From Rhodospirillaceae bacterium (GTDB taxonomy: Bacteria > Pseudomonadota > Alphaproteobacteria > Rhodospirillales > UBA2165): 64,000 nucleotides of DNA. Within the stretch, counting starts at the first letter, position 1; every line of letters starts with the position of its first letter. Of the stretch, positions 5,837 to 27,206 are shown one piece after another. Made by a program: the position numbers and the translations under genes. The stretch spans positions 143,065 to 207,064 of the forward strand of contig CANIGJ010000003.1 of NCBI GenBank assembly GCA_947467145.1. The letters run 5' to 3'. A model generated the notes under the pieces. That model did no database searches and was not told the DNA's origin. It worked only from the letters and a program-made list of their open reading frames with translations.

Positions 5837-6556
5837 TTATTTTTTGCCGCTGCTTTTGGCTTTTTCTTGCGTCTTGTCGGGGGCGGCCCCTTTGCCTTGG
5901 GAGAACTGCTTCACCAGGTCGGCGCCGGCCTTGTCCATCTTGGACGCGGTATCGAAATCGCGTTTGGCGAGATCGGTTTTGCCCAGCTCATTGTAGATAT
6001 GGCCGCGGAAGGCATAGAGGAACGAATCCTTGCTGACCGTGCCGATGGCGACATTCAGATCGTTCAGCGCCTCAGGCAATTTGTCGATGGCATAAAGATT
6101 GAGGGCGCGCTGGCGGCGATATGCGCCGATATGCGGCGCCAGCTCGATCGCATAGTCGATGTCCTTCAGTGCCGAGCCCGCGAGATCGAGATCGAGTAGG
6201 GATTGCGAGCGAAGATTCAGAACGAGGGCGCGTGCCGCGCGGTTCAGCGGATCGTCGTCCTTCCTTTCCATGAGCTCGAAGGCTTTGGTGAAATCCTCGA
6301 CCGCCAAGGCGCTTTTCTTCAGCATGAAAAACGAATTGCCGCGCATGAAGAACAGATCGGCACGCTGCGCCTTGCTGCGCGTCGGCTTTTCCGTGTCTTC
6401 CTCGATGGCGAGGGCGAAATACATCGCCGCGCCTTCGTAGTCTTCCTTGGAAAACGCGACGCGGCCGCTTTGTTCGGGACTTTCGGTCTGGGCAATGGAC
6501 GGCGTGCCCGCTAGGGCGAGCAGGATCACGAGGAGAGTCGCTAAGAATTTTGTCAT
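5837..6556 (-). CDS. Secreted TPR-repeat protein
   Basis: ORF 5837..6811 trimmed to the ATG at 6556 (MTKFLATLLVILLALAGTPSIAQ, a signal peptide). It has repeated A..YF.LA/..A..D...AIEL TPR-like units and a Lys-rich tail. The ATG overlaps the stop of the upstream peptidase gene (ATGA). Confidence 0.65.
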   Translation of the reverse strand: MTKFLATLLVILLALAGTPSIAQTESPEQSGRVAFSKEDYEGAAMYFALAIEEDTEKPTRSKAQRADLFFMRGNSFFMLKKSALAVEDFTKAFELMERKDDDPLNRAARALVLNLRSQSLLDLDLAGSALKDIDYAIELAPHIGAYRRQRALNLYAIDKLPEALNDLNVAIGTVSKDSFLYAFRGHIYNELGKTDLAKRDFDTASKMDKAGADLVKQFSQGKGAAPDKTQEKAKSSGKK

Positions 6557-14021: not shown

Positions 14022-14894
14022 ATGAGGATCGTCCGATACGCTCTCGGCAGTGAAGCACGACTTGGGTTGCTGCTGTCCGACGACCGAGTCGCCGAATTGC
14101 CAGGCAACGACGATCTCGTCGCCTGGCTGCAGGCCGGCAAGCCGACGCAAAGCGCGTTTGCGCGCCCGCTGGCCGATTGCAAGTTGCTGGCTCCGGTGGC
14201 GCGGCCCAGCAAAATCATTGCGGTCGGGCGCAACTACCGTTCCCACAATCGCGAAATGTCGGCCGGCGATGGGCGTTTCCCCAATGTCGTGCCATCGGCC
14301 TGGATCAAGGCGACATCGACTCTTGCGGGTGCCTTCGACGACGTTGTGAAACCGCGCGCGACCCAGAAACTGGATTACGAAACCGAGCTGGCCGTGGTCA
14401 TCGGCAAGCGCTGCCGTCATGTGCACGAAGACGACGCTGTTTCGGTAATCGCGGGCTATACCGTCGCGTCAGACATCACGGCGCGCGATGTCGTCGCCAT
14501 CGAACGGGCCGAGGGCAACCAGCTCCTGGGCAAGATGTTCGATACCTTCTGCCCGATGGGGCCCTGGTTCGTCACCGCCGACGAAGTTCCCGATCCCATG
14601 AACTTGTCCTTGATCACACGCGTCAACGGCGAAGTGCGTCAGGAGTCGAACACCGCCAACATGATCTGGCCGATTGCCAAACTGATCGCGTACGTCTCGC
14701 AGATGACCTTGGAAGCGGGCGATATCATCCTGACCGGCACGCCATCGGGCGTCGCCATGGGACGAAAGGCCGGCGACTGGTTCTTGCAGGCGGGCGACGT
14801 GTTGGAATCCGAACTCGGCGGTATCGGCGTCATGCGCAACCGCATCGTTGACGCTGCGGATCAGCCCACCAGTTGGGACTGGGCGAAGGCCTAA
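14022..14894 (+). CDS. Fumarylacetoacetate hydrolase (FAH) family protein
   Basis: 290 aa. KIIAVGRNYRSH, ELAVVIGK, ARD..., MIWPIAKLIAYVSQMTLEAGDIILTGTPSGV are the FAH-family C-terminal domain blocks. It starts 3 nt after the VOC gene. Confidence 0.85.
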   Translation: MRIVRYALGSEARLGLLLSDDRVAELPGNDDLVAWLQAGKPTQSAFARPLADCKLLAPVARPSKIIAVGRNYRSHNREMSAGDGRFPNVVPSAWIKATSTLAGAFDDVVKPRATQKLDYETELAVVIGKRCRHVHEDDAVSVIAGYTVASDITARDVVAIERAEGNQLLGKMFDTFCPMGPWFVTADEVPDPMNLSLITRVNGEVRQESNTANMIWPIAKLIAYVSQMTLEAGDIILTGTPSGVAMGRKAGDWFLQAGDVLESELGGIGVMRNRIVDAADQPTSWDWAKA

Positions 14895-15535
14895 GCGGCC
14901 GCCAGTTTCCGGCTCGAAAGTGCGCTGACCGCAATCACCAGTCCGATCGCCACCGCGTGGATGGCCAGATCGATCACGGTCACGTCGAACGGGTGGAAGA
15001 ATTGCAGCAGGAATGCGGCAATCCCGGCGACACCGAGACCGCCCATGGCGGCGACCGAGGCCGGGGCGAGCGGCTTCGCGTGCAGTAGCATCCACGACAA
15101 GACGAGACCGAGTGGGATGCTCGTGCCCAGCAGGATCAGGAAACATTCCGTGCTTTCGGCGAGATCGGTCGGCGTGCCCGCGATCCAGCCTTGCAGGCAA
15201 CCGAGCCCGGTGGTGGCCAACCATGTGGCCAGCGCGGGCAGGGGCAGCAGCGCCCAGGCGCGACTGCGATCGGGCAGGCTCATTTCGAACGCGGCCACGA
15301 CCGCCAGCAGGCCGGTCGCGAGCGTGGCGGTCAACTCGACCATCTGACGCACATCGTGCGCGCGGCCGATGAAGGCGGACGTATCGGCAAACGCGGCAAT
15401 TATGCCGCCGGACCCGATCGCCACGCAGCCCAGCCAGGCCGCCGCGCGCATCAGGGGATGGCGCAGGCGATGGACGGGCCCGGCATCGGCGCTCAGCCGC
15501 GCGATCAATTGATCGGTCGTATCACTCATCGTCAC
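14891..15535 (-). CDS. nrsF: NrsF family (DUF1109) membrane anti-sigma factor for sigma F
   Basis: 214 aa. The N-terminus DQLIARLSADAGPVHRL is followed by about 6 TM segments, with conserved Cys in GLGCLQGW and STECFLIL. The start overlaps the stop of the ECF sigma gene by 14 nt. Confidence 0.8.
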   Translation of the reverse strand: MTMSDTTDQLIARLSADAGPVHRLRHPLMRAAAWLGCVAIGSGGIIAAFADTSAFIGRAHDVRQMVELTATLATGLLAVVAAFEMSLPDRSRAWALLPLPALATWLATTGLGCLQGWIAGTPTDLAESTECFLILLGTSIPLGLVLSWMLLHAKPLAPASVAAMGGLGVAGIAAFLLQFFHPFDVTVIDLAIHAVAIGLVIAVSALSSRKLAAA

Positions 15536-16100
15536 CCCGACTTCCTTTCAGGCGCGCCCGCAGTGTTTTTATGGCGCGATGCACATTGACCTTGAGGGCC
15601 GCGATGGACTTGCCGCTGACCTGCGATGCTTCGCGCAGCGACAGGTCCCGCACCTTCAAAAGCTCAATGGCCTCGCGTTGTCCTTCGGGCAGGGCGGCAA
15701 TCGCGGCGCCTAGTCCGGAGGCTTGCACGGTCAGCTCCGTGTCCTTGTTCGCTCCAGGATCGGCAAAGGTTTCATAGGCGACGTCGTCCGCGGTCTCGAC
15801 CGCGGCAATCCGCCCGCGCCGCCGGATCGCATCGATCGACCGCCGCCGCGCGATGGTAGCCAACCAGGCATCGAACGGGCGGGCCGGATCGTAGGTATGC
15901 CGGACGCGATGCACCGTCAGCAGGACGTCCTGCACGACATCTTCGATGCGATCTCGGCGATGCTGGCGCGCGACCACGGTGCGGATGAAGGGCACGGCTG
16001 CGCGCAACAGCTGCTCATAGGCCGCGCGGTCGCCGTCCTGGGCGGCCTGCATCAGCCGCGACCAGTTTTCGCGATTTGTGTTGTCGCCCTGTGTAACCAT
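15522..16100 (-). CDS. sigF: ECF RNA polymerase sigma factor (SigF-type)
   Basis: ORF 15522..16295 trimmed to the ATG at 16100 (MVTQGDNTNRENWSRLMQAAQDGDRAAYEQLL..). It has region 2 (DVVQDVLLTVHR..FDAWLATIARRRSIDAIRRR) and region 4 (LPEGQREAIELLKVRDLSLREASQVSGKSIAALKVNVHRA). It is co-transcribed with nrsF. Confidence 0.85.
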   Translation of the reverse strand: MVTQGDNTNRENWSRLMQAAQDGDRAAYEQLLRAAVPFIRTVVARQHRRDRIEDVVQDVLLTVHRVRHTYDPARPFDAWLATIARRRSIDAIRRRGRIAAVETADDVAYETFADPGANKDTELTVQASGLGAAIAALPEGQREAIELLKVRDLSLREASQVSGKSIAALKVNVHRAIKTLRARLKGSRGDDE

Positions 16101-16117
16101 TCCCGAAACCACGCGAA
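16091..16117 (+). promoter_or_regulatory. Candidate ECF (sigma F-type) promoter upstream of the bufferin precursor gene
   Basis: TGTAACC (16091-16098) followed 15 nt later by CGAA (16114-16117), about 63 nt upstream of the bufA ATG. From memory, the Caulobacter sigma F promoter is GTAACC..CGAA-like. The consensus and spacing need checking. Confidence 0.4.
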
Positions 16118-16179
16118 CAAACAGATACGGGCGGCCATTCGGACGCCCGCGCAATGTCAGCATAACTGGAGAGACACAG

Positions 16180-16464
16180 ATGCAAAAGGTTTCCACCAAA
16201 GGCGCTCTGCTCGCCGCGTCCGCTTTCGCGACTTTCGCTGTGATGGCCGCCGTTTCGCCGTCCAAGGCCGGCCCCGCGCCGGAGCCGACCTTCAAGGCCG
16301 AGAAGTGCTATGGCGTCGCCGCCTCGGGCCAAAACGATTGCGCGTCGGCGGGCAGCAATTCCTGCGCCGGGACCGCGACCAAGGCGAGCGACCCGAAGGC
16401 CTGGATCTATGTGCCGGCCGGGACGTGCACCAAGATTCAGGGCGCCACTCTGAAGGCGATGTAA
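16180..16464 (+). CDS. bufA: DUF2282 / BufA1-type bufferin precursor peptide (Sec signal peptide + Cys-containing core)
   Basis: ORF 16078..16464 trimmed to the ATG at 16180, which follows TGGAGAGA. MQKVSTKGALLAASAFATFAVMAAVSPSKA is a signal peptide. The core EKCYGVAASGQNDCASAGSNSCAGTATKASDPKAWIYVPAGTCTKIQG has the four Cys in the DUF2282 pattern. Confidence 0.85.
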   Translation: MQKVSTKGALLAASAFATFAVMAAVSPSKAGPAPEPTFKAEKCYGVAASGQNDCASAGSNSCAGTATKASDPKAWIYVPAGTCTKIQGATLKAM

Positions 16465-16485
16465 TCGGATCGGTGCGGGGCGGTC

Positions 16486-17328
16486 ATGTTGGACACTTCG
16501 GCGGTACATGCTGGCGCTCTGGTCGGAATCGGCCTGCGCGGACCGCATCTGGTCGAATTGCCGCGACGCCGCCCCGCGCTCGATTTCGTCGAAGTCCATG
16601 CCGAGAACTATATGGATTTCGGGCCGGCGTTCGATCGACTGATGGACGTGCGGCGCGACTACCCCGTCAGTCTGCATGGTGTCGGACTATCGCTGGGCAG
16701 CGCCGATGGGCTCGATGCGCGACATCTCGCGCGCTTCCGCGATCTGATCGCGCGTATCGATCCGATTCTTGTCTCCGAACATCTCGCCTGGTGCATCGCG
16801 GGCGGCGTCTATCTGAATGATTTGCTGCCGCTTCCCTATACCGAAGAAGCGCTTGACCTCGTCGCGCGCAATGTTGCGCGGGCACAGGAGGCGCTCGGCC
16901 GTCGTTTGCTGGTCGAAAATCCGTCGCGTTATCTCAACTTCGCCCATTCGCCGATTCCCGAAGCGGAGTTCTTAGGCGCACTGGTGGTGCGCACCGGCTG
17001 CGCTATTCTCTGCGACATCAATAATATCGTCGTGAGCGCGCATAATGTCGGCGAAGACGCGAGCGCTTATCTTGAGAAACTGCCACGCGCAGCGGTGCAG
17101 GAAATTCACCTGGCGGGACATAGCGTTCAGTCGATCGATGGGCGAACCATCCTGATCGACGATCACGGATCGCCGGTCAGTGATGAGGTCTGGCGGTTAT
17201 ACGCGCGCGCCCGGCAGACATTCGGCGCCGTGCCGAGCTTGATCGAACGCGATCGCAATCTGCCGCCGCTCGATGAATTGTTGGCCGAAGCCGATCGCGC
17301 AAGAGTTGATCATGCTCTCGCTGCTTGA
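16486..17328 (+). CDS. bufB: DUF692 / MNIO (multinuclear non-heme iron oxidative) enzyme, BufB-type
   Basis: 280 aa with a TIM-barrel DUF692 pattern: GIGLRGPH...DFVEVHAENYM...LHGVGLSLGS...VSEHLAW...LVENPSRYL...DINNI.VSAHN...EIHLAGH...LIDDHG. It starts 21 nt after bufA. Confidence 0.88.
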   Translation: MLDTSAVHAGALVGIGLRGPHLVELPRRRPALDFVEVHAENYMDFGPAFDRLMDVRRDYPVSLHGVGLSLGSADGLDARHLARFRDLIARIDPILVSEHLAWCIAGGVYLNDLLPLPYTEEALDLVARNVARAQEALGRRLLVENPSRYLNFAHSPIPEAEFLGALVVRTGCAILCDINNIVVSAHNVGEDASAYLEKLPRAAVQEIHLAGHSVQSIDGRTILIDDHGSPVSDEVWRLYARARQTFGAVPSLIERDRNLPPLDELLAEADRARVDHALAA

Positions 17329-18082
17329 AATCCAAACGGCATTCGCCGGCGCCTTGTTATATGACGGCGCCGCCGATCTTGGGGACTGGCTGCGCGACGA
17401 CGGCATTGCCGCCACTGCGCGGATCGACATCTATCGCAACAATATGCAGGCCTCGCTGAGCGCGGCACTCGGCGAGATGTTCCCGGTCATCCGCCGTCTC
17501 GTCGGCGATGGCTTCTTTGCCTACGCGACCCATGAATTCGTCAGCCAGCATCCGCCGGTTTCGCCCTGCGTGGCCGATTACGGCGCGGGCTTCGCCGACT
17601 TCCTGTCTGCCTTTGCACCATGCTGTGAATTGCCCTATCTGCCTGATGTCGCGCGCTTCGAACGATTGCTGCACGACGCCGCGCGCTGTGCCGATGCGCC
17701 TCCACTCGATGCGTCGGCGCTCGCTGGGATCGACGCATCGGATGCTGGGCGTCTGGTTTTCACGCTCCAGCCGTCGCACGGCTATCTCTGTTCGCCGTGG
17801 CCGGTGACGGCGATCTGGCGCGTCAATCAGGATGGCCGCGATGGCGCGGTCGATCTGCAGGGTGGCGGCGTCCTGGTCGAGGTCTGCCGCCCCGACGGCA
17901 TTGTCGAGTTCCGTGAATTGCCTCCAGCGGATTTTGCCTTTCGCGCCGCGTTGGCCGGTGCCGCAACATTTGCCGATGCGCTGGTGGCCGCGTCCGATCG
18001 CGACGCCGCGTTCGATGTCGCCGCCGCCTTGGCCGAATTGTTGGCCGATCGCGCCATCACTGGCGTTCGGCTTATGGAGTGA
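17312..18082 (+). CDS. bufC: DUF2063 domain protein, BufC-type MNIO partner
   Basis: ORF 17273..18082 trimmed to the ATG at 17312 (MLSLLEIQTAFAGALL...IDIYRNNMQASLSAALGEMFPVIRRLVGDGFFAYATHEFVSQHPP). This is the conserved DUF2063 N-terminal region. It overlaps bufB by 17 nt. Confidence 0.8.
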   Translation: MLSLLEIQTAFAGALLYDGAADLGDWLRDDGIAATARIDIYRNNMQASLSAALGEMFPVIRRLVGDGFFAYATHEFVSQHPPVSPCVADYGAGFADFLSAFAPCCELPYLPDVARFERLLHDAARCADAPPLDASALAGIDASDAGRLVFTLQPSHGYLCSPWPVTAIWRVNQDGRDGAVDLQGGGVLVEVCRPDGIVEFRELPPADFAFRAALAGAATFADALVAASDRDAAFDVAAALAELLADRAITGVRLME

Positions 18083-18089
18083 AAGACCG

Positions 18090-18518
18090 ATGCCCAACTT
18101 AGCAACGCTGTTCGCCGATCTCGAACGATTCCCGCTGTCGATTCTGCAATTCCTGTTCAGAGTGTCGATCGGGTTGGTGTTCTGGTATTCGGGCCTGACC
18201 AAGATCGCGAGCTGGCCGACCACGATCCTTTTGTTCCGGGACGAATACGCCGTTCCGCTTCTGCCGCCGGAGCTCGCCGCGACCTTTGCGACCGCCGTTG
18301 AATTAAGCTGTCCGGTCCTGCTGCTCTTCGGATTGGCGACGCGTCTCGCGACCTTGCCGCTGATCGGCATGACCCTGGTGATCCAGATGTTCGTCTATCC
18401 GGAATCCTGGAGCGTCCATTTGATGTGGATGGCGATCTTGGTGTTCATCCTGACGCGTGGCCCGGGTGCGCTGTCGATCGATCATTGGATCGCGCGTTCG
18501 ATACGGCCGAACGTCTAA
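18090..18518 (+). CDS. DoxX family membrane protein (fourth gene of the bufferin-type operon)
   Basis: ORF 17832..18518 trimmed to the ATG at 18090. 142 aa with 4 predicted TM segments. FLFRVSIGLVFWYSGLTKI... is the DoxX N-terminal motif. It starts 7 nt after bufC. Confidence 0.8.
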   Translation: MPNLATLFADLERFPLSILQFLFRVSIGLVFWYSGLTKIASWPTTILLFRDEYAVPLLPPELAATFATAVELSCPVLLLFGLATRLATLPLIGMTLVIQMFVYPESWSVHLMWMAILVFILTRGPGALSIDHWIARSIRPNV

Positions 18519-18539: not shown

Positions 18540-19352
18540 TTAAGACGTGGTGCGTTTGCGCGGACGTTTCGGCGCGACCTTGGGATAATTGACGGCCGTT
18601 TGGTGCACGTGGTGACCCATCAGGTCGGCCGCTTCGGCGGCTTTGCCCTTTTCGATGAGCTGTAAAATCTGCTCGTGAATTTTCTGAATGCGTTTGCGCG
18701 CCGACAGCGTCAGCTCGACGTCGTCGCGCCGGGTCACCAGACGCAAGGCGCGAAACAGCGAACTCAACACCGGATTCTGCGTGCTCTTGGCGACGCAGAC
18801 ATGGAATGCAAGGCCGTTGTCCTGGAACGCATGTACGGAGCCGATCAGATCGGCGCCGTCCTGCACGATCGCATGTAACTCCTTGATATTGTCGGCAGTG
18901 CGGCGCTGGGCGGCGAGGCGGGCGGCCGTCATCTCGATGACATGTTGCATCTCGAATATCTGCGGCAGGTTCACATCCGCTAGTTTAAACTGTACCGCCA
19001 ACGCCTCGGCGAAACTGTCTGGGTGTCCTTCGGCGATCCAGGCCCCACCTTTCGCCCCTGAGCGAACCTCGATGATGCCAAGACCCTGCAGCGATTGCAG
19101 CGCCTCGCGTGCGGTGCGCCGCCCGACCTTGAATTTTTCTACAAGCGTACTTTCCGAGCCGAGAAAATCGCCGGGACGAAGCAGGTCCTCGAAAAGCTGG
19201 CTCTTGACGTGGGCGACAAGCGCATCCGACGCCCGAGATGACGATTGCGGTTCGAATTCGAGCGGCGAAGAGATCTTGGGGCGGCTTTTTCGCAAAGGCT
19301 GGGTCCGATGGCGACAACGATACGATTGGCGGAAACTATCGTGTTTTCGCAA
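18540..19352 (-). CDS. GntR/FadR family transcriptional regulator
   Basis: N-terminal wHTH LRPGDFLGSESTLVEKFKVGRRTAREALQSLQGLGIIEVRSGAKGGAWI plus an all-helical FCD-like C-terminal domain. The start is uncertain: TTG at 19352, or an in-frame TTG at 19292. Confidence 0.75.
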   Translation of the reverse strand: MRKHDSFRQSYRCRHRTQPLRKSRPKISSPLEFEPQSSSRASDALVAHVKSQLFEDLLRPGDFLGSESTLVEKFKVGRRTAREALQSLQGLGIIEVRSGAKGGAWIAEGHPDSFAEALAVQFKLADVNLPQIFEMQHVIEMTAARLAAQRRTADNIKELHAIVQDGADLIGSVHAFQDNGLAFHVCVAKSTQNPVLSSLFRALRLVTRRDDVELTLSARKRIQKIHEQILQLIEKGKAAEAADLMGHHVHQTAVNYPKVAPKRPRKRTTS

Positions 19353-19420
19353 ATATTCAAACGCTGGTCCGGGACGGCGACCCAGATTCAGCTAGTGTCC
19401 GTATTTGTCGCCTGCTAAAG

Positions 19421-19436
19421 ATGTCATATATGACAT
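19421..19436. promoter_or_regulatory. Perfect 16-bp palindrome ATGTCATATATGACAT, candidate GntR-family operator
   Basis: It reads identically on both strands. It contains the GT-N-AC core typical of GntR/FadR operators. It lies in the divergent intergenic region between the regulator and the Rieske oxygenase gene, just upstream of AAGGAGG (19444-19450). Confidence 0.45.
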
Positions 19437-19457
19437 ATATAAAAAGGAGGCCTCGTC

Positions 19458-20765
19458 ATGACGTCGGCGCGCGATAACGAAACTCTCACGTCGGTCGGTC
19501 CCGGCACACCGATGGGCGAATTGATGCGGCGCTATTGGGTTCCGGCTGCGCTCTCCAGCGAGGTGACCAAAGACGGCGATCCGTTGCGGCTTAAATTGCT
19601 ATGCGAGGACCTGATCGCGTTTCGCGATTCGTCAGGCCGCGTCGGCGTGATGGATCATCGCTGCCCGCATCGTTGTGCCTCCTTGTTCTTCGGGCGCAAC
19701 GAAGAAGGTGGTATCCGTTGCGTCTATCACGGCTGGAAGTTCGACGTCGACGGCAACTGCACCGACATGGCAAATGTGCCGCCGCACCAGGATTTCAAGC
19801 ACAAGGTTCATGCCAAGGCCTATCGCGCCGAAGAACGCGCTGGCCTAATCTGGGTCTATATGGGCGATCAGGCGCGCGTGCCGGCCCTGCCTGATCTGGA
19901 GGTGTTGCAACTGGACGCCGACGCGGTGGGAATCGATGTGTTTCAGCGCGAATGTAATTGGTTGCAGGCGCTCGAAGGCGACATCGATACATCCCACGTC
20001 GATTTCTTGCACGGCGGAACGCGTACGGTCGATGATTTTCCGCCGGACGATCCGCGCCGCTACGGCGCGATCCATCGCGATCCGGAATACACGATTGCGG
20101 AAACGGACTGGGGTACGATGTATGGCGCCCATCGCCCCGCCGATCAGGGACGGCGCTATTGGCGTGTCGCCCATTTCCTGTTTCCGTTTTGGACGATGAC
20201 GCCGGCAGGCGTTTTCGACACCTATATCCATGCGCGCGCCTGGGTGCCGATGGACGATCACCACACCATGGGCTTTGGTCTATCGAAAAAGGGATCGCGC
20301 CTGACGGCGATCGGCAACGCCAAGCAGGGCATTGCGCTTCACGTCGAGGAACGCTTACCCAATACCACCGACCGGTTCGGCCGGTGGCGCTTTGCTGCCA
20401 ACGCGCGCAACGATTACCGGATCGATCGCGCTGCCCAACAATCGCAAATCTATAGCGGCATCACCGGCATCACGCTGCAGGACCAGGCGATGACCGAAAG
20501 CATGGGAGAGGTCGTTGATCGTTCGCTGGAACATCTGGCGCCGAGCGATCGCATGATTGCCGTGACGCGCCGTCGGCTTTTGTTTGCTGCTCAAGCCTTG
20601 CAGAAAGACGCCGTGGCACCTCCCGGCGCCGATGAGCCCGGTGTGTTTCATGGCGCACGTGGCGGCTATTACCTGGCGCCGGAAAATGCCGAATGGCAGG
20701 ATTTTTATAAAGAAAGACTCACCTCGGTACGCCGCCAAGCCAGCTCCGCCGCAGCGGCGGAATAA
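19458..20765 (+). CDS. Rieske (2Fe-2S) non-heme iron oxygenase, alpha-only (phthalate/VanA/PobA-like family)
   Basis: Rieske motif CPHRCASLFFG...CVYHGWKF. The catalytic domain has NWLQALEGDIDTSHVDFLH (Fe ligands). No beta subunit follows. There is a strong RBS. Confidence 0.85.
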   Translation: MTSARDNETLTSVGPGTPMGELMRRYWVPAALSSEVTKDGDPLRLKLLCEDLIAFRDSSGRVGVMDHRCPHRCASLFFGRNEEGGIRCVYHGWKFDVDGNCTDMANVPPHQDFKHKVHAKAYRAEERAGLIWVYMGDQARVPALPDLEVLQLDADAVGIDVFQRECNWLQALEGDIDTSHVDFLHGGTRTVDDFPPDDPRRYGAIHRDPEYTIAETDWGTMYGAHRPADQGRRYWRVAHFLFPFWTMTPAGVFDTYIHARAWVPMDDHHTMGFGLSKKGSRLTAIGNAKQGIALHVEERLPNTTDRFGRWRFAANARNDYRIDRAAQQSQIYSGITGITLQDQAMTESMGEVVDRSLEHLAPSDRMIAVTRRRLLFAAQALQKDAVAPPGADEPGVFHGARGGYYLAPENAEWQDFYKERLTSVRRQASSAAAAE

Positions 20766-20808
20766 AGCAATAATCAAGTATAATCCTACAGGGAAGATCG
20801 GACCAACC

Positions 20809-22353
20809 ATGCTCACATTCGCATATCGACTGACGGTCTGCGCCGTCGCACTTGTCATGTCGGCGACACCGGGCTTCGCGCAGAAATCCAAGGATACCTT
20901 CCGCCAATTGCATGCGCAGGCGATTGCGACGCTCGATCCGTATCTCGATCCGCGGCCCGAAGTGTATTTCGCCAGCGAGATGCCGTTCGACCGATTGATC
21001 ATGCTGGACGAAGGGGCCGAGAAATTCGTCGGCAATCTTGCGCGATCCTGGGCCCGCCCCGATACCAAGACGATCGAGATGGAGTTGCGTGACGACGTCA
21101 CCTGGAGCGACGGACAGAAATTCACGGCGGACGACGTTATTTATACGCTGGGGTATCTGTCCAATCCGAAGTCGAATTTTCGCTTCGCGAGCGATTACGA
21201 CTGGATCGAGCGCGTCGAGAAGCTCGGGCCGCACAAGATTAGGATCGTCGCATCGCGTACTGTTCCTTACGACCTGGCGCGGCTAGGTGGATACACCTTT
21301 ATGTTTCCTCAGCACGTTCACGGGCCGCTTGAGTCCAAGCAGGATTTTGGCCGTGCTCCCGTTGGAACCGGCCCGTACAAAATCGTGCAGGTCGACAAGA
21401 ACACGGGAATTCGTGCGGAAAAGCGTACCGACCATGTCCACGCCAATAACGTAAAGAAGTCGCCATCGATTAAAAATGTGGTTCTGCGCGGTGTGCCGGA
21501 CCGGGGAACGCGCGTCGCCGAGCTTTTGGCCGGCAATGTTGATGCGATCCACGACGTCTCGCCCGATCAGGCCGAAGATTTGGCCAAGTCGCCGCAATTG
21601 GCCATGACGGTGACACTTCCCTTCGCCTATCAATACATGATGATCGATATGAAGGGGCGCAGCGGTGTGGCTCCGCTTAAGGACAGGCGCGTGCGGGCCG
21701 CGATACTGCACGCGATCGATCCGGAGGCGATCAACATAATGATCGGCGGAAAGTCCGTTAGCCTGACGCGCCCGCCGGCGCTGTGCCACCCGATGCAGCT
21801 TGGCTGCGACTATTCGCTCGAAACGCCGAAGTTCGACCGGGCGAAGGCGCGCGGCCTTTTGGCCGAGGCCGGCGTCCCATCCGGTTTCGACGTCGCGATC
21901 ACGACGAACAGTCTCGCCGGAAAGGATATCGCCGAGGTCGTGGCCGGTCAGCTGCGTGCGATTGGCATCCGCGCCAACGTCGACCCGCAAACCTTTGCCG
22001 CCTATCGCCAACTGCAGAGCGACGGCAAGATCAATATGATGATTTCTGGCTGGGGCGGCGGTGGGTTGCCAGATGTCGGCGGCACGCTTGATTTCCTGTT
22101 CGAGGGCGGCTCGCGCGATTATCACGGCGTGCCCGGTTGGGTTGAAGCCGCGCAGAAGGCCAACACTGAAAACGACGATCGGGCGCGACGCGCCATCGTG
22201 AAAAAACTTTTCGACGAGGTAACGACGGAAGGTTATATCGTGCCGATGGCGCCGATCCCGCGCTTTTGGATGCATACCCGTGAGGTCAAGATCGCGACGC
22301 CCAGCAGCTTCAATGCCTACGGTGCGGATGCATGGGGCTTTTCGTGGGAGTAG
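20809..22353 (+). CDS. ABC transporter substrate-binding protein, family 5 (peptide/nickel/opine type)
   Basis: ORF 20584..22353 trimmed to the ATG at 20809 (MLTFAYRLTVCAVALVMSATPGFAQ, a signal peptide). The length (about 514 aa) and the WSDGQKFTADDV.YT motif are typical of SBP_bac_5. There are no adjacent permease or ATPase genes. Confidence 0.8.
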   Translation: MLTFAYRLTVCAVALVMSATPGFAQKSKDTFRQLHAQAIATLDPYLDPRPEVYFASEMPFDRLIMLDEGAEKFVGNLARSWARPDTKTIEMELRDDVTWSDGQKFTADDVIYTLGYLSNPKSNFRFASDYDWIERVEKLGPHKIRIVASRTVPYDLARLGGYTFMFPQHVHGPLESKQDFGRAPVGTGPYKIVQVDKNTGIRAEKRTDHVHANNVKKSPSIKNVVLRGVPDRGTRVAELLAGNVDAIHDVSPDQAEDLAKSPQLAMTVTLPFAYQYMMIDMKGRSGVAPLKDRRVRAAILHAIDPEAINIMIGGKSVSLTRPPALCHPMQLGCDYSLETPKFDRAKARGLLAEAGVPSGFDVAITTNSLAGKDIAEVVAGQLRAIGIRANVDPQTFAAYRQLQSDGKINMMISGWGGGGLPDVGGTLDFLFEGGSRDYHGVPGWVEAAQKANTENDDRARRAIVKKLFDEVTTEGYIVPMAPIPRFWMHTREVKIATPSSFNAYGADAWGFSWE

Positions 22354-22360
22354 CTTGGCG

Positions 22361-22988
22361 TCAGCGCGTCGGCAGCACCTGGCCGACATAGGCCGAACAG
22401 CCGACGACGATGCCCATGGCGAGCATGTGAATCCCCCAATCGCCGAGATTCATTTCGAAGCCATGGAAAAACTGTAACAGGGCGACAGCCGCCGACGAGA
22501 TGGCCAAACCGGCCATGGCGGACGCCGACCAGCCGAGATGCGCGCGGTGGAGGCGGAGCAGTGGGAACAGCAGCAGGGCAATCGGGATGCTGGTCGCCAG
22601 GATGAACAGGAAGCAATCCGGGCTATGACCGTAGAGTAGCTGCTCGGCCGGCTTGTCGAGCGGAACGTCGATGCCAATAGCTCACCGTCAGGGCCTGCCA
22701 GACGACGAACAGCACGAGCGGGGTCACGCGCCACCGCAAGGTGCGCCCGCGGACATGGATGCGGAAGGCGGCGACCGCTGCGGCCGCGCTCGTCAGGACG
22801 GCGCCCAGCAATTCCAGCCGTTCTTCGGGGTCATGCAGGGCGCGATCGATCAGATGGGGCTTGGCGAAAAACAAGACGAACAAACCCGCCGCCCCGGCCA
22901 GCACAGCCAGAACGCTTAGGGCGCTTAACAGCGGCGCCGAGCCAACAAAAAGGGCAAGGGCGCCGGGGCGCTTGCCTGTCTCGCTCAA
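22361..22988 (-). pseudogene. Frame-interrupted orphan NrsF (DUF1109) paralog
   Basis: Two frames together align to the NrsF at 14891-15535. The upstream ORF (22623..22988) gives ..LELLGAVLTSAAAAVAAFRIHVRGRTLRWRVTPLVLFVVWQALTV. My translation of the frame that is open from 22681 down to the TGA at 22361 gives AIGIDVPLDKPAEQLLYGHSPDCFLFILATSIPIALLL...LLQFFHGFEMNLGDWGIHMLAMGIVV. A 1-nt shift is needed near 22680. Confidence 0.6.
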
Positions 22989-23082
22989 GTTGACGGTCTT
23001 TCTAAGATGAGGCCTGTCTAGACAGGAAAATAGCGACTCGGCCCAGCTTTGACGAGAGACGGATTACCCGGGGGTCGGGGGG

Positions 23083-23120
23083 CAAAACGAAAGCCCGCCA
23101 CTGGGGTCAGTGACGGGCTT
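23083..23120 (-). terminator. Rho-independent terminator downstream of the LigB-type dioxygenase gene
   Basis: Minus strand: AAGCCCGTCACTGACCCCAGTGGCGGGCTT followed by TCGTTTTG. The GC-rich stem-loop lies 26 nt after the stop at 23146. Confidence 0.6.
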
Positions 23121-23145
23121 CGGTTCGATCCGAGACGGTCTGCGG

Positions 23146-24162
23146 TTACTGCCAGGTGGCAAACGCCATGGCGTTGCCGGTGCCCGCTTCGGAGCGGTAG
23201 CACGGCACGTAATCGAGCAGGTTCATTTCGTAGTTCGTGGTCGACAGAACGCCCAAGGTCGCGATCCAGTTCTTGGTCTCCGACGTGCCCGAATTGAAGA
23301 TGATGTTGGGCTCGCTGATGATCGTCTTATAGTCGCGGGTCTGCATCGCCTTCAGCATCTTGCGGTCCCACGCCTCGTCGATGACGAAGTGCGACAGCCC
23401 ACCCGACGCCACGACCAGCACGCGCTTGTCGCTGTCCCACTTCTGGATGCCGCGGCTGATCGCCTGGCCCAGCTCGAAGCAGCGCTTCGGCGTCGGCTGG
23501 TTGGGCGGGAAGAAGGTGTTGATCAGCACCGGCACCAGCGGGATCGCCTTGTCCTTCAGGATGCGGCGATAGATGAAGGTGACCGCATGGCCGATGCCGC
23601 GCGGGCCTTCCGGGCCTTCCGGCACCTTTTCCGATGCGGTGACGTCGAATTCCGACTCCATGCATTCGGCGACGATGGTGTTGGCGAGATCGGGCACGCA
23701 GTCGTACCAGGTATCGACCGGTGTATGGCGCGACGCTTCGACGAGCTGCACCGCGGGGTCCTTGTGCGCGTGCTTGGCGGCTTCGTAGCCCGTGTTCAGC
23801 ACCTTGTCGCCGGAGAAGATCGAATAACTCGGCTGCACGTCGTCGAAGAACCATTCATGCTGGTCATCGCCGATCAGCACGATCACATCGGGTTTCATCT
23901 TCTGGACGGTTTCGCCCAGCTTATCGAGCGCCACCTGGCAGCGGTTGAACCGTTCGGCGCGCACGTCGGGCAGGATTTCCTTCTCGAAATGCTCCTGCTC
24001 GCTGTTGCGCTTGGCGAGTAGCTGCGGGAAATCGTACACGCCGCCGCGGAAATGGTGCTCTTTCAGGTTGCGGTCGAAATTGGCGCGCAGCGGCCATTGT
24101 TCCGCGGGGAGAATAAGCAGTGGCCCGTGGGACGATCCCATCCCGCCGACGATCTTTGCCAT
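23146..24162 (-). CDS. Class III extradiol ring-cleavage dioxygenase (LigB family)
   Basis: ORF 23146..24222 trimmed to the ATG at 24162, which follows AAGGAAAG. MAKIVGGMGSSHGP... and later VLVVASGGLSHF are LigB-family hallmarks. 338 aa. Confidence 0.75.
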   Translation of the reverse strand: MAKIVGGMGSSHGPLLILPAEQWPLRANFDRNLKEHHFRGGVYDFPQLLAKRNSEQEHFEKEILPDVRAERFNRCQVALDKLGETVQKMKPDVIVLIGDDQHEWFFDDVQPSYSIFSGDKVLNTGYEAAKHAHKDPAVQLVEASRHTPVDTWYDCVPDLANTIVAECMESEFDVTASEKVPEGPEGPRGIGHAVTFIYRRILKDKAIPLVPVLINTFFPPNQPTPKRCFELGQAISRGIQKWDSDKRVLVVASGGLSHFVIDEAWDRKMLKAMQTRDYKTIISEPNIIFNSGTSETKNWIATLGVLSTTNYEMNLLDYVPCYRSEAGTGNAMAFATWQ

Positions 24163-26291: not shown

Positions 26292-27206
26292 ATGTCCGCT
26301 CGTAACGCGGTCCCGGCGCTCGCGGATGCGATCGGCGTCGAAGACAGATTCAATCTCGCCTTCTCACGATTGTTCACTTACCTGTCTCCCAAGGAAACGA
26401 AAGCGCTGCTATCGCGCGCCACCTTGATCGAATGCGAGCCGGGTGAGTTCATCGTCTATGAGGGCGCCTCCGCCTCCGCGCTGTTCGTCATCGTCGAAGG
26501 CGAGGCGAAGGTTCTCAAACGCGAATATACGCAACGCCATCATGAGAAGATGATCGAACTCGCGCGCCTCGGCCTGGGCTCGATCATCGGCGAGATGTCG
26601 TTCTTGGACGGCGACGTCGCCAGCGCTTCGGTGATGGCCGATCGGCCGACCAAGCTCTACCGCATCGATCTCAAGGTGATTTTCGATCTGATCGAACATT
26701 CGCCGGAATTCTCGACCAATTTCTACCGCTCGCTCGCCGGCATCCTGTCACGCCGCCTGCGCGTCGCGAACGCCGTGCTGACCACGTCGCAGGAAGTACG
26801 CTCGGTCGCGGCCAAGGATCATCATCGCATTTTCGTTGTGGACGACGATCCCGAGGTCCTCAAATTCATCACCTTGTTCCTGGAAAGCGCCGGGCACAGC
26901 GTGCGCTCCTCCACCAGCCCAATCGAAGGGCTCTCGCTGATCAAGCAGTTCCGGCCCGATATGGTGCTGACCGATCTGATGATGTCGGGCATGAACGGCT
27001 TGGATTTCTGCCGCGAGCTGCGCCGCCACGCCGAATATACCGCGATGAAGATCGTCATGATGTCGGTGCGCCCGGAAGCCTATTGGACCGGTGAATCGCT
27101 CGATGCCGGCGCGGACGGTTTCATCATGAAGCCGCTTAATCCGGAAACCATCGTCTCGCAGATCGAACGGGTGATGGCGACCAACCATACGGCGCGCGCG
27201 GCCTAA
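26292..27206 (+). CDS. Cyclic nucleotide-binding-like domain fused to a C-terminal response-regulator receiver domain
   Basis: The N-terminal CAP_ED-like part is GEFIVYEGASASALFVIVEGEAKV...GSIIGEMSFLDGDVASASVMA. The C-terminal REC part is IFVVDDDPEV...PDMVLTDLMMSGMNG...KIVMMS...GADGFIMKP. Confidence 0.75.
   Translation: MSARNAVPALADAIGVEDRFNLAFSRLFTYLSPKETKALLSRATLIECEPGEFIVYEGASASALFVIVEGEAKVLKREYTQRHHEKMIELARLGLGSIIGEMSFLDGDVASASVMADRPTKLYRIDLKVIFDLIEHSPEFSTNFYRSLAGILSRRLRVANAVLTTSQEVRSVAAKDHHRIFVVDDDPEVLKFITLFLESAGHSVRSSTSPIEGLSLIKQFRPDMVLTDLMMSGMNGLDFCRELRRHAEYTAMKIVMMSVRPEAYWTGESLDAGADGFIMKPLNPETIVSQIERVMATNHTARAA

Follow-up and report, generated by a model that had tools for sequence, protein, structure and literature searches.

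The feature described here lies on the minus strand at positions 22361-22988 of the window, by which we mean the whole 64,000-nucleotide stretch of DNA that was analysed. It is a frameshifted allele of an NrsF-like (DUF1109) paralogue, referred to below as NrsF-short. The surrounding genes comprise a canonical sigF-nrsF operon, a bufferin-type operon and a conserved dioxygenase gene, arranged as follows.

14891-16100, minus strand: canonical sigF-nrsF operon, with nrsF at 14891-15535 and sigF at about 15522-16100 (Pfam, NCBIfam)
16180-18518, plus strand: bufferin-type operon encoding BufA/DUF2282, an MbnB-like DUF692 protein, HvfC/DUF2063 and DoxX (Pfam of homologous loci); it adjoins the paralogue in most relatives
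18540-22353, no strand assigned: GntR, Rieske/LigXa-like oxygenase and SBP_bac_5 block, lying between the buf operon and the paralogue in this lineage
22361-22988, minus strand: NrsF-short, frameshifted allele; the intact form has 208 aa, starting with TTG at 22988 and ending with TGA at 22363-22361
23146-24162, minus strand: LigB-type class III extradiol dioxygenase, 338 aa, the conserved upstream neighbour (Pfam, NCBIfam)

The 257-aa sigF open reading frame obtained mechanically (15522-16295, minus strand) is over-extended, its homologues having 175-197 aa, and the likely start is ATG at 16100 or GTG at 16112. A weak tblastn match at 6285-6539 (E = 0.02), considered as a third NrsF remnant, falls inside a TPR-protein gene and was set aside as a chance match.

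The coding information of NrsF-short is divided between two reading frames of the minus strand.

22677-22988, minus strand: codons 1-104 in frame A, encoding the N-terminal motif and TM1-TM3 (by tblastn, 99-100% identical to the corrected protein over residues 1-104; concordant with hydropathy and with the AlphaFold model of the orthologue P0001)
22674-22675, minus strand: GG dinucleotide, one G of which is the base inserted into the Cys105 codon (TGC to TGGC), from DNA alignments with five orthologues and a sister strain
22623-22625, minus strand: premature TAG in frame A, after 17 non-native residues; product of 121 aa
22361-22672, minus strand: residues 106-208 and the stop codon in frame B, encoding the periplasmic loop with Cys125 and TM4-TM6 (tblastn; Pfam NrsF score of 23.9 bits for this part alone)

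Frame A extends from the TTG at 22988 as far as the TAG at 22625-22623 (121 aa), and frame B stays open between about 22690 and the TGA at 22363-22361. The window reads TAT TGG C ATC where the five orthologues align as T-GC; besides this extra G the gene has no indel, and the comparison with the sister strain shows no other in 785 nt. The first-pass annotation had placed a frame switch near 22680 that a correction of 1 nt would repair, and the alignments locate it as the extra G at 22675/22674, the deletion of which restores SYCIDVPLDK. As encoded, 104 native residues are followed by 17 wrong ones and a stop, and the frame B half (residues 106-208) is out of reach of translation from the start of the gene. 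Periplasmic loop 2 has a cysteine on either side, and the affected codon, Cys105, specifies the first of them. The 121-aa product retains TM1-3 only and is without the conserved loop, Cys125 and TM4-6, for which reason the allele is taken to be null.

A tblastn search with the canonical NrsF of the window matched both halves, aligning 22934-22686 with residues 27-109 (33% identity) and 22627-22373 with residues 127-211 (40% identity), with a joint E value of 3e-14 for the two segments. The fused protein is 34% identical to the canonical NrsF (14891-15535, minus strand) over 193 aa (E = 3e-25). Homology of both halves to NrsF is thus far beyond chance and confirms the original observation that two minus-strand frames together match the canonical protein. 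The fused protein (208/209 aa) scores 34.2 bits against the Pfam NrsF profile (PF06532/DUF1109), covering profile positions 18-201 of 204 and exceeding the gathering threshold of 26.8 bits, which identifies the corrected sequence as an NrsF-family protein. The C-terminal half alone scores 23.9 bits, below this cut-off, and the profile gave no match to the N-terminal half alone. NCBIfam holds no model for the NrsF/DUF1109 family. Hydropathy analysis revealed six hydrophobic segments in the corrected protein, and the AlphaFold model of the orthologue P0001, which stands in for it here (pLDDT of 85), places helices at residues 19-41, 54-76, 83-106, 122-147, 153-171 and 181-204, in agreement with six transmembrane helices in about 210 aa. 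A sequence search of solved structures returned nothing relevant, and in a Foldseek search of solved structures the best match had an E value of 0.8 and none resembled the fold.

The single-base nature of the lesion, together with the intact sequence found in the sister strain, might suggest an error of sequencing or assembly in a gene that is whole in the organism. The exact LigB protein of the window is found on several public contigs, and four of these [L013 (ENA ERZ27280140), L014 (Logan ERR3761200), L015 (Logan ERR12084928) and L016 (Logan ERR12084932)] match the window with 100% identity over 4.5-13 kb. All four carry the extra G (GTGAGCTATTGGCATCG) within these identical flanks. Their sources are an ENA metagenome assembly and three sequencing runs, and they differ in sample or run, although perhaps not all are independent, since the ENA assembly or the record of the window itself could go back to one of the Logan runs; the frameshift allele is contained in at least two run series (ERR37612xx and ERR120849xx). 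The recurrence of the identical base in four further assemblies argues that it is not a sequencing error, as had been proposed among the options. Furthermore, the contigs with the intact allele differ from the window by about 1% and hence belong to another strain instead of giving a corrected version of this one, the site is a GG dinucleotide with no homopolymer run, and 14 neighbouring genes align over their full length to those of relatives without a frameshift. We therefore regard an indel error as very improbable.

The sister strain was reached through a LigB protein that is 99.7% identical to that of the window and is represented by ENA ERZ28612979, GCA_947472775.1 (L022), SRR6787039 and ERR3761219 (loci L021, L022, L024 and L025); ERR3761218 holds the same LigB, on a contig that stops short of the paralogue. 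Its DNA is 98.7-99.5% identical to the window and its gene order is the same. NrsF-short is called there as an intact protein of 208 aa that equals the corrected window sequence residue for residue, so that the intact gene which the first-pass annotation proposed looking for in related genomes exists both at about 99% nucleotide identity and in more distant orthologues. Over 785 nt the two strains differ by six or seven substitutions and the extra G; within the gene, four or five of the substitutions are synonymous and none is non-synonymous. By exact look-up the intact protein occurs on seven contigs and a 51-aa remnant reading frame of the broken allele, which is the representative of the 90% cluster that holds the intact 208-aa protein, on six. 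Both alleles are present in the run series ERR37612xx.

A gene for a cNMP-binding/response-regulator protein (26292-27206, plus strand) is whole in the window and encodes 304 aa; its counterpart in the sister strain (L021, 1957-2871) is interrupted by a nonsense mutation (window coordinate 26660, TAC to TAG). With the frameshift in one strain and the nonsense mutation in the other, each has its own null allele in a regulatory gene.

Relative to more distant orthologues, the dN/dS of the window allele is 0.19 (0.27 for the N-terminal half and 0.09 for the C-terminal half). Pairs of intact genes give 0.19-0.29, and this equality means that there is no sign of a long decay; the orthologues themselves are under purifying selection, with a dN/dS of about 0.2. 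The first-pass annotation had also offered a decaying duplicate, which among its three options comes closest as far as decay is concerned. An old, long-decaying copy of the neighbouring nrsF would account for the homology to the local protein and for the location in the same island. Nevertheless, the protein shares only 34% identity with the local NrsF as against 50-77% with its orthologues from other genomes, both halves have a dN/dS of about 0.2, and the gene bears a single lesion. The intact allele at 99% average nucleotide identity, taken with the dN/dS values, refutes this reading, and we give it almost no credence.

Recoding of the broken gene, by a programmed +1 ribosomal frameshift or otherwise, could in principle still deliver the full-length protein. 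Both halves remain open and are perfectly conserved relative to the sister strain, but such conservation is expected anyway at about 1% divergence. Programmed frameshift sites are conserved, and here the shift is absent in all orthologues, including the approximately 99% identical sister strain. The local sequence, UAU-UGG-CAU, contains no shift-prone codon with a stop behind it, and frame A has no such stop close by. Recoding is thus extremely improbable. Taken together, these data make it highly probable, on the sequence comparisons, that the locus carries a real, very recent and strain-specific loss-of-function allele of a conserved NrsF-family paralogue, the intact product of which is predicted to be a six-TM member of a rare DUF1109 subfamily.

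No sigma-factor gene is found within about 6 kb on either side of the paralogue; sigF, the window's only one, is about 6.3 kb away and is already paired with its own nrsF. The description of the gene as an orphan holds for the window to this extent, but does not characterize the gene in general. In relatives, threonine synthase is succeeded by cytochrome b561, LigB, alpha/beta hydrolase, in some cases a third DUF1109 paralogue, and NrsF-short, after which three arrangements occur.

L007 and L020: sigF-nrsF follows directly, on the same strand
L005, L001, L010, L017/18 and L019: doxX-hvfC-mbnB-bufA follows, divergent from sigF-nrsF
L002 and L011: no sigF nearby

In seven of eight distinct, more distant relatives sigF-nrsF lies within about 3.5 kb of the orthologue, and for this reason 'orphan' misdescribes the gene. 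The orthologues stand upstream of sigF (L007, L020) or beside doxX (L005, L001, L010, L017, L019) and never 3' of a second sigma-factor gene. In the window and the sister strain the GntR-Rieske-SBP5 block separates the buf operon from the paralogue. LigB is 92-94% identical in the five relatives compared, L001, L002, L005, L007 and L011; a LigB gene is also called upstream of the paralogue in L019.

Conservation varies considerably across the island. Identities between genomes are 85-95% for threonine synthase, LigB, an FAA hydrolase and a glyoxalase-type gene (to which SBP5, Rieske and GntR are added in L007) and 53-91% for the buf-operon genes and cytochrome b561; between the same genomes NrsF-short is 50-76% and canonical NrsF 69-73% identical. 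The GntR-Rieske-SBP_bac_5 block is found 3' of nrsF in L007 and is absent from this position in L005, L001 and L019, and its shifting location indicates that the island has been rearranged. The third DUF1109 paralogue (L005, 2565-3203; L001, 9246-9857; L020, 1004-1636) is absent from the window. It has 204-212 aa, is 27-37% identical to the other two paralogues and lies between the hydrolase gene and NrsF-short, giving three NrsF-like genes around one sigF in these relatives.

The interval between LigB and the paralogue contains two further features.

23007-23141, minus strand: remains of an alpha/beta-hydrolase gene that has lost roughly 770 nt internally (alignment to the intact L007 hydrolase gene)
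23124-23149, minus strand: exact SigF promoter motif, GTAACC-N16-CGAA, overlapping the LigB stop codon, upstream of a hairpin and of the paralogue

The 157 nt between the two genes are the two ends of the hydrolase gene. The 5' piece (23119-23084) and the 3' piece (23075-23018, with a 2-nt indel) align to the L007 gene with 32/36, 15/16 and 41/51 identities. The gene is intact in L007, L005, L001, L019 and L020, and L002 and L011 hold a different, longer remnant. Since the deletion is common to the window and the sister strain, it is older than the frameshift. The 5' piece folds into a strong hairpin (AGCCCGTCACTG...CAGTGGCGGGCT, with a T-rich run after it); relatives conserve this hairpin as well, within the coding sequence of their hydrolase gene. 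A conserved block of about 90 nt with a GTCTAGAC palindrome, 5' of the paralogue, had been considered as an operator or promoter; it is the 3' end and stop codon of the hydrolase gene and thus a remnant of the deletion.

The motif at 23149-23124 corresponds to the SigF promoter published for Caulobacter (PMC3511200) and might hint at regulation. The match uses the TAA stop codon of LigB and is not conserved in L002 and L011, where the stop is TAG; the motif is absent upstream of the orthologues, and chance alone would give about 0.4 exact matches over the length of the window. As a SigF promoter it was rejected, and it is probably a chance match. A SigF-type motif with a different spacing, GTAACC-N15-CGAA, occurs at 16093-16117 (plus strand), 5' of bufA and overlapping the divergent sigF start region, and an equivalent site is present in L005 and L001.

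Seventeen intact homologues of the corrected protein were collected (184-216 aa, 52-77% identical), 12 of which span the whole query, the other five being N-terminally shorter calls. They align as ...SYC-(L/I)DVPLDKPAEQ... at the point where the window changes frame. An exhaustive HMMER search of 1.84 billion representatives returned essentially one strong 50%-identity cluster and a few outliers, with canonical NrsFs aligning only from about position 18 of the subfamily profile. Scans of the sequence collections found one locus among genome contigs and three among metagenome contigs, and these small numbers mark the subfamily as rare.

The most evident peculiarity of the subfamily is its N-terminus. 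In all members the match to Pfam NrsF starts at position 11-20 and scores 27-37 bits (27.3-37 for intact orthologues); in the sigma-linked NrsFs encoded by these genomes it begins at position 1, with 50-70 bits. The canonical motif DQLIARLSADAGPV is not recognisable in the paralogue, as the first-pass annotation had stated in describing an absent N-terminal segment. The protein is not truncated by decay, however: about 18-22 residues with a conserved motif of their own precede TM1, and the reduced N-terminus is common to every intact member, which makes it a trait of the subfamily. The P0001 model shows a disordered head and a short helix (residues 11-17) directly against TM1 (19-41), and the model of the canonical NrsF of the window (pLDDT of 87) has a helix at 4-17, a linker and TM1 at 27-49. 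According to these predicted models, the canonical N-terminal helix is replaced in NrsF-short by a short head of partly hydrophobic character.

Cys125 (SPDCFLF) is invariant in 22 of 22 aligned sequences drawn from the subfamily and from canonical NrsFs, and aligns with C131 of the window NrsF; in the window allele it is encoded 3' of the frameshift and is hence untranslated. Cys105 is kept in most, not all, members of the subfamily. At the position equivalent to C181 of Caulobacter NrsF, an assignment deduced from the equal length of 214 aa and the match at C131, both the paralogue subfamily and the canonical NrsFs of the clade have an invariant histidine (QFFH). A cysteine is present elsewhere, at the start of periplasmic loop 2, as GLGC in canonical NrsF and as SYC in the paralogue of this clade. 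By these sequence characteristics NrsF-short represents a rare, conserved DUF1109 subfamily that is separate from the local nrsF. A literature search on DUF1109 found no description of sigma-less NrsF paralogues of this type.

The closest characterized protein is NrsF (CC3252) of Caulobacter crescentus, the anti-sigma factor of SigF/ECF16. Cys181 of this protein is functionally important, as is C131 (PMC3511200). The frame-corrected paralogue resembles it in Pfam homology, in having about 210 aa and six TM helices, in the cysteine equivalent to C131 (C129 in Brucella) at the start of TM4 and in its sigF-nrsF-bufferin (DUF2282/DUF692/DUF2063/DoxX) neighbourhood. Unlike Caulobacter NrsF, it has no match to the canonical N-terminal segment (Pfam positions 1 to about 17; about 25 cytoplasmic residues), is never immediately 3' of a sigma-factor gene of its own and, by the deduced numbering, has His at the position of C181 (C179 in Brucella), as does the local NrsF of this clade; in the window the gene is, in addition, frameshifted. 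AbcS (B0023) of Brucella melitensis and OsrA of Bradyrhizobium japonicum share the DUF1109 family, the six TM helices and the periplasm-facing cysteines. Both are encoded directly 3' of a sigma-factor gene, and AbcS binds its sigma factor in a two-hybrid assay (PMC8315932), whereas NrsF-short has no cognate sigma-factor gene. Of the characteristics of ECF16 anti-sigma factors, the C131 equivalent is thus present and the second cysteine, the N-terminal segment and the adjacent sigma-factor gene are missing. The subfamily is a minor departure from the known NrsF family in which these three features of the functional class are lacking.

The allele in the window has the properties of ordinary strain-specific frameshift pseudogenes: a frame that is reproducibly broken relative to intact orthologues, a single-base insertion, an intact allele in an approximately 99% identical strain, no secondary lesions and an independent null mutation in another gene of the sister strain. 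It is an ordinary null allele, distinctive only in its gene family.

The missing N-terminal segment and the missing sigma-factor gene lead us to speculate that intact NrsF-short is an accessory membrane sensor or modulator of SigF/NrsF and not an autonomous anti-sigma factor. Its gene follows LigB, with or without the alpha/beta hydrolase in between, at the edge of a sigF-nrsF-bufferin island; synteny with sigF is strong but not universal, given that L002 and L011 hold the gene with no sigF nearby. In the present strain one G was inserted into the Cys105 codon, so that translation from the TTG codon would yield 121 aa, consisting of TM1-3 and the 17 wrong residues. The loss may be part of a stepwise erosion of the hydrolase-NrsF-short module.

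As an alternative to erosion, the 121-aa TM1-3 product could act as a functional decoy or dominant-negative partner of NrsF and the allele could be adaptive, for example by derepressing SigF and bufferin expression. The N-terminal reading frame retains its start codon and a purine-rich stretch upstream, the frameshift allele is found in several samples, and Kohler et al. (PMC3511200) raise the possibility of NrsF multimers. However, stability and expression of the fragment are hypothetical, it is without every family-shared residue of loop 2 and TM4-6, and the neighbouring hydrolase gene had already been deleted, which fits plain erosion. In addition, the nonsense mutation in another regulator gene of the sister strain implies that scattered null alleles are normal in these strains. 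A decoy function is therefore unlikely. Slightly less doubtful, although still rather improbable, is a more elaborate scheme in which NrsF-short would be a sigma-binding-deficient hetero-oligomer partner of NrsF (and of the third paralogue in some genomes) that tunes SigF/bufferin copper-stress sensing through its Cys-flanked loop, and in which the frameshift would be an adaptive rewiring comparable to mucA-type anti-sigma nulls instead of neutral decay. Its hetero-oligomer component derives solely from the possible NrsF multimers (Kohler et al., PMC3511200).

With plain loss of function as the preferred reading, the appropriate annotation for the locus is a frameshifted pseudogene, or null allele, of a paralogue in the NrsF family; it should be neither 'fixed' as a sequencing error nor listed as a novel truncated regulator. 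For the family, two or three DUF1109 paralogues are grouped around one sigF in some Rhodospirillales-like alphaproteobacteria, at least one subfamily being devoid of the canonical N-terminal segment. Should these additional copies act on NrsF as modulators, ECF16 signalling and the control of bufferin (copper-stress) operons would each gain a further level. The intact and null alleles in strains that are about 99% identical provide a natural pair with which this idea of modulation may be tested.
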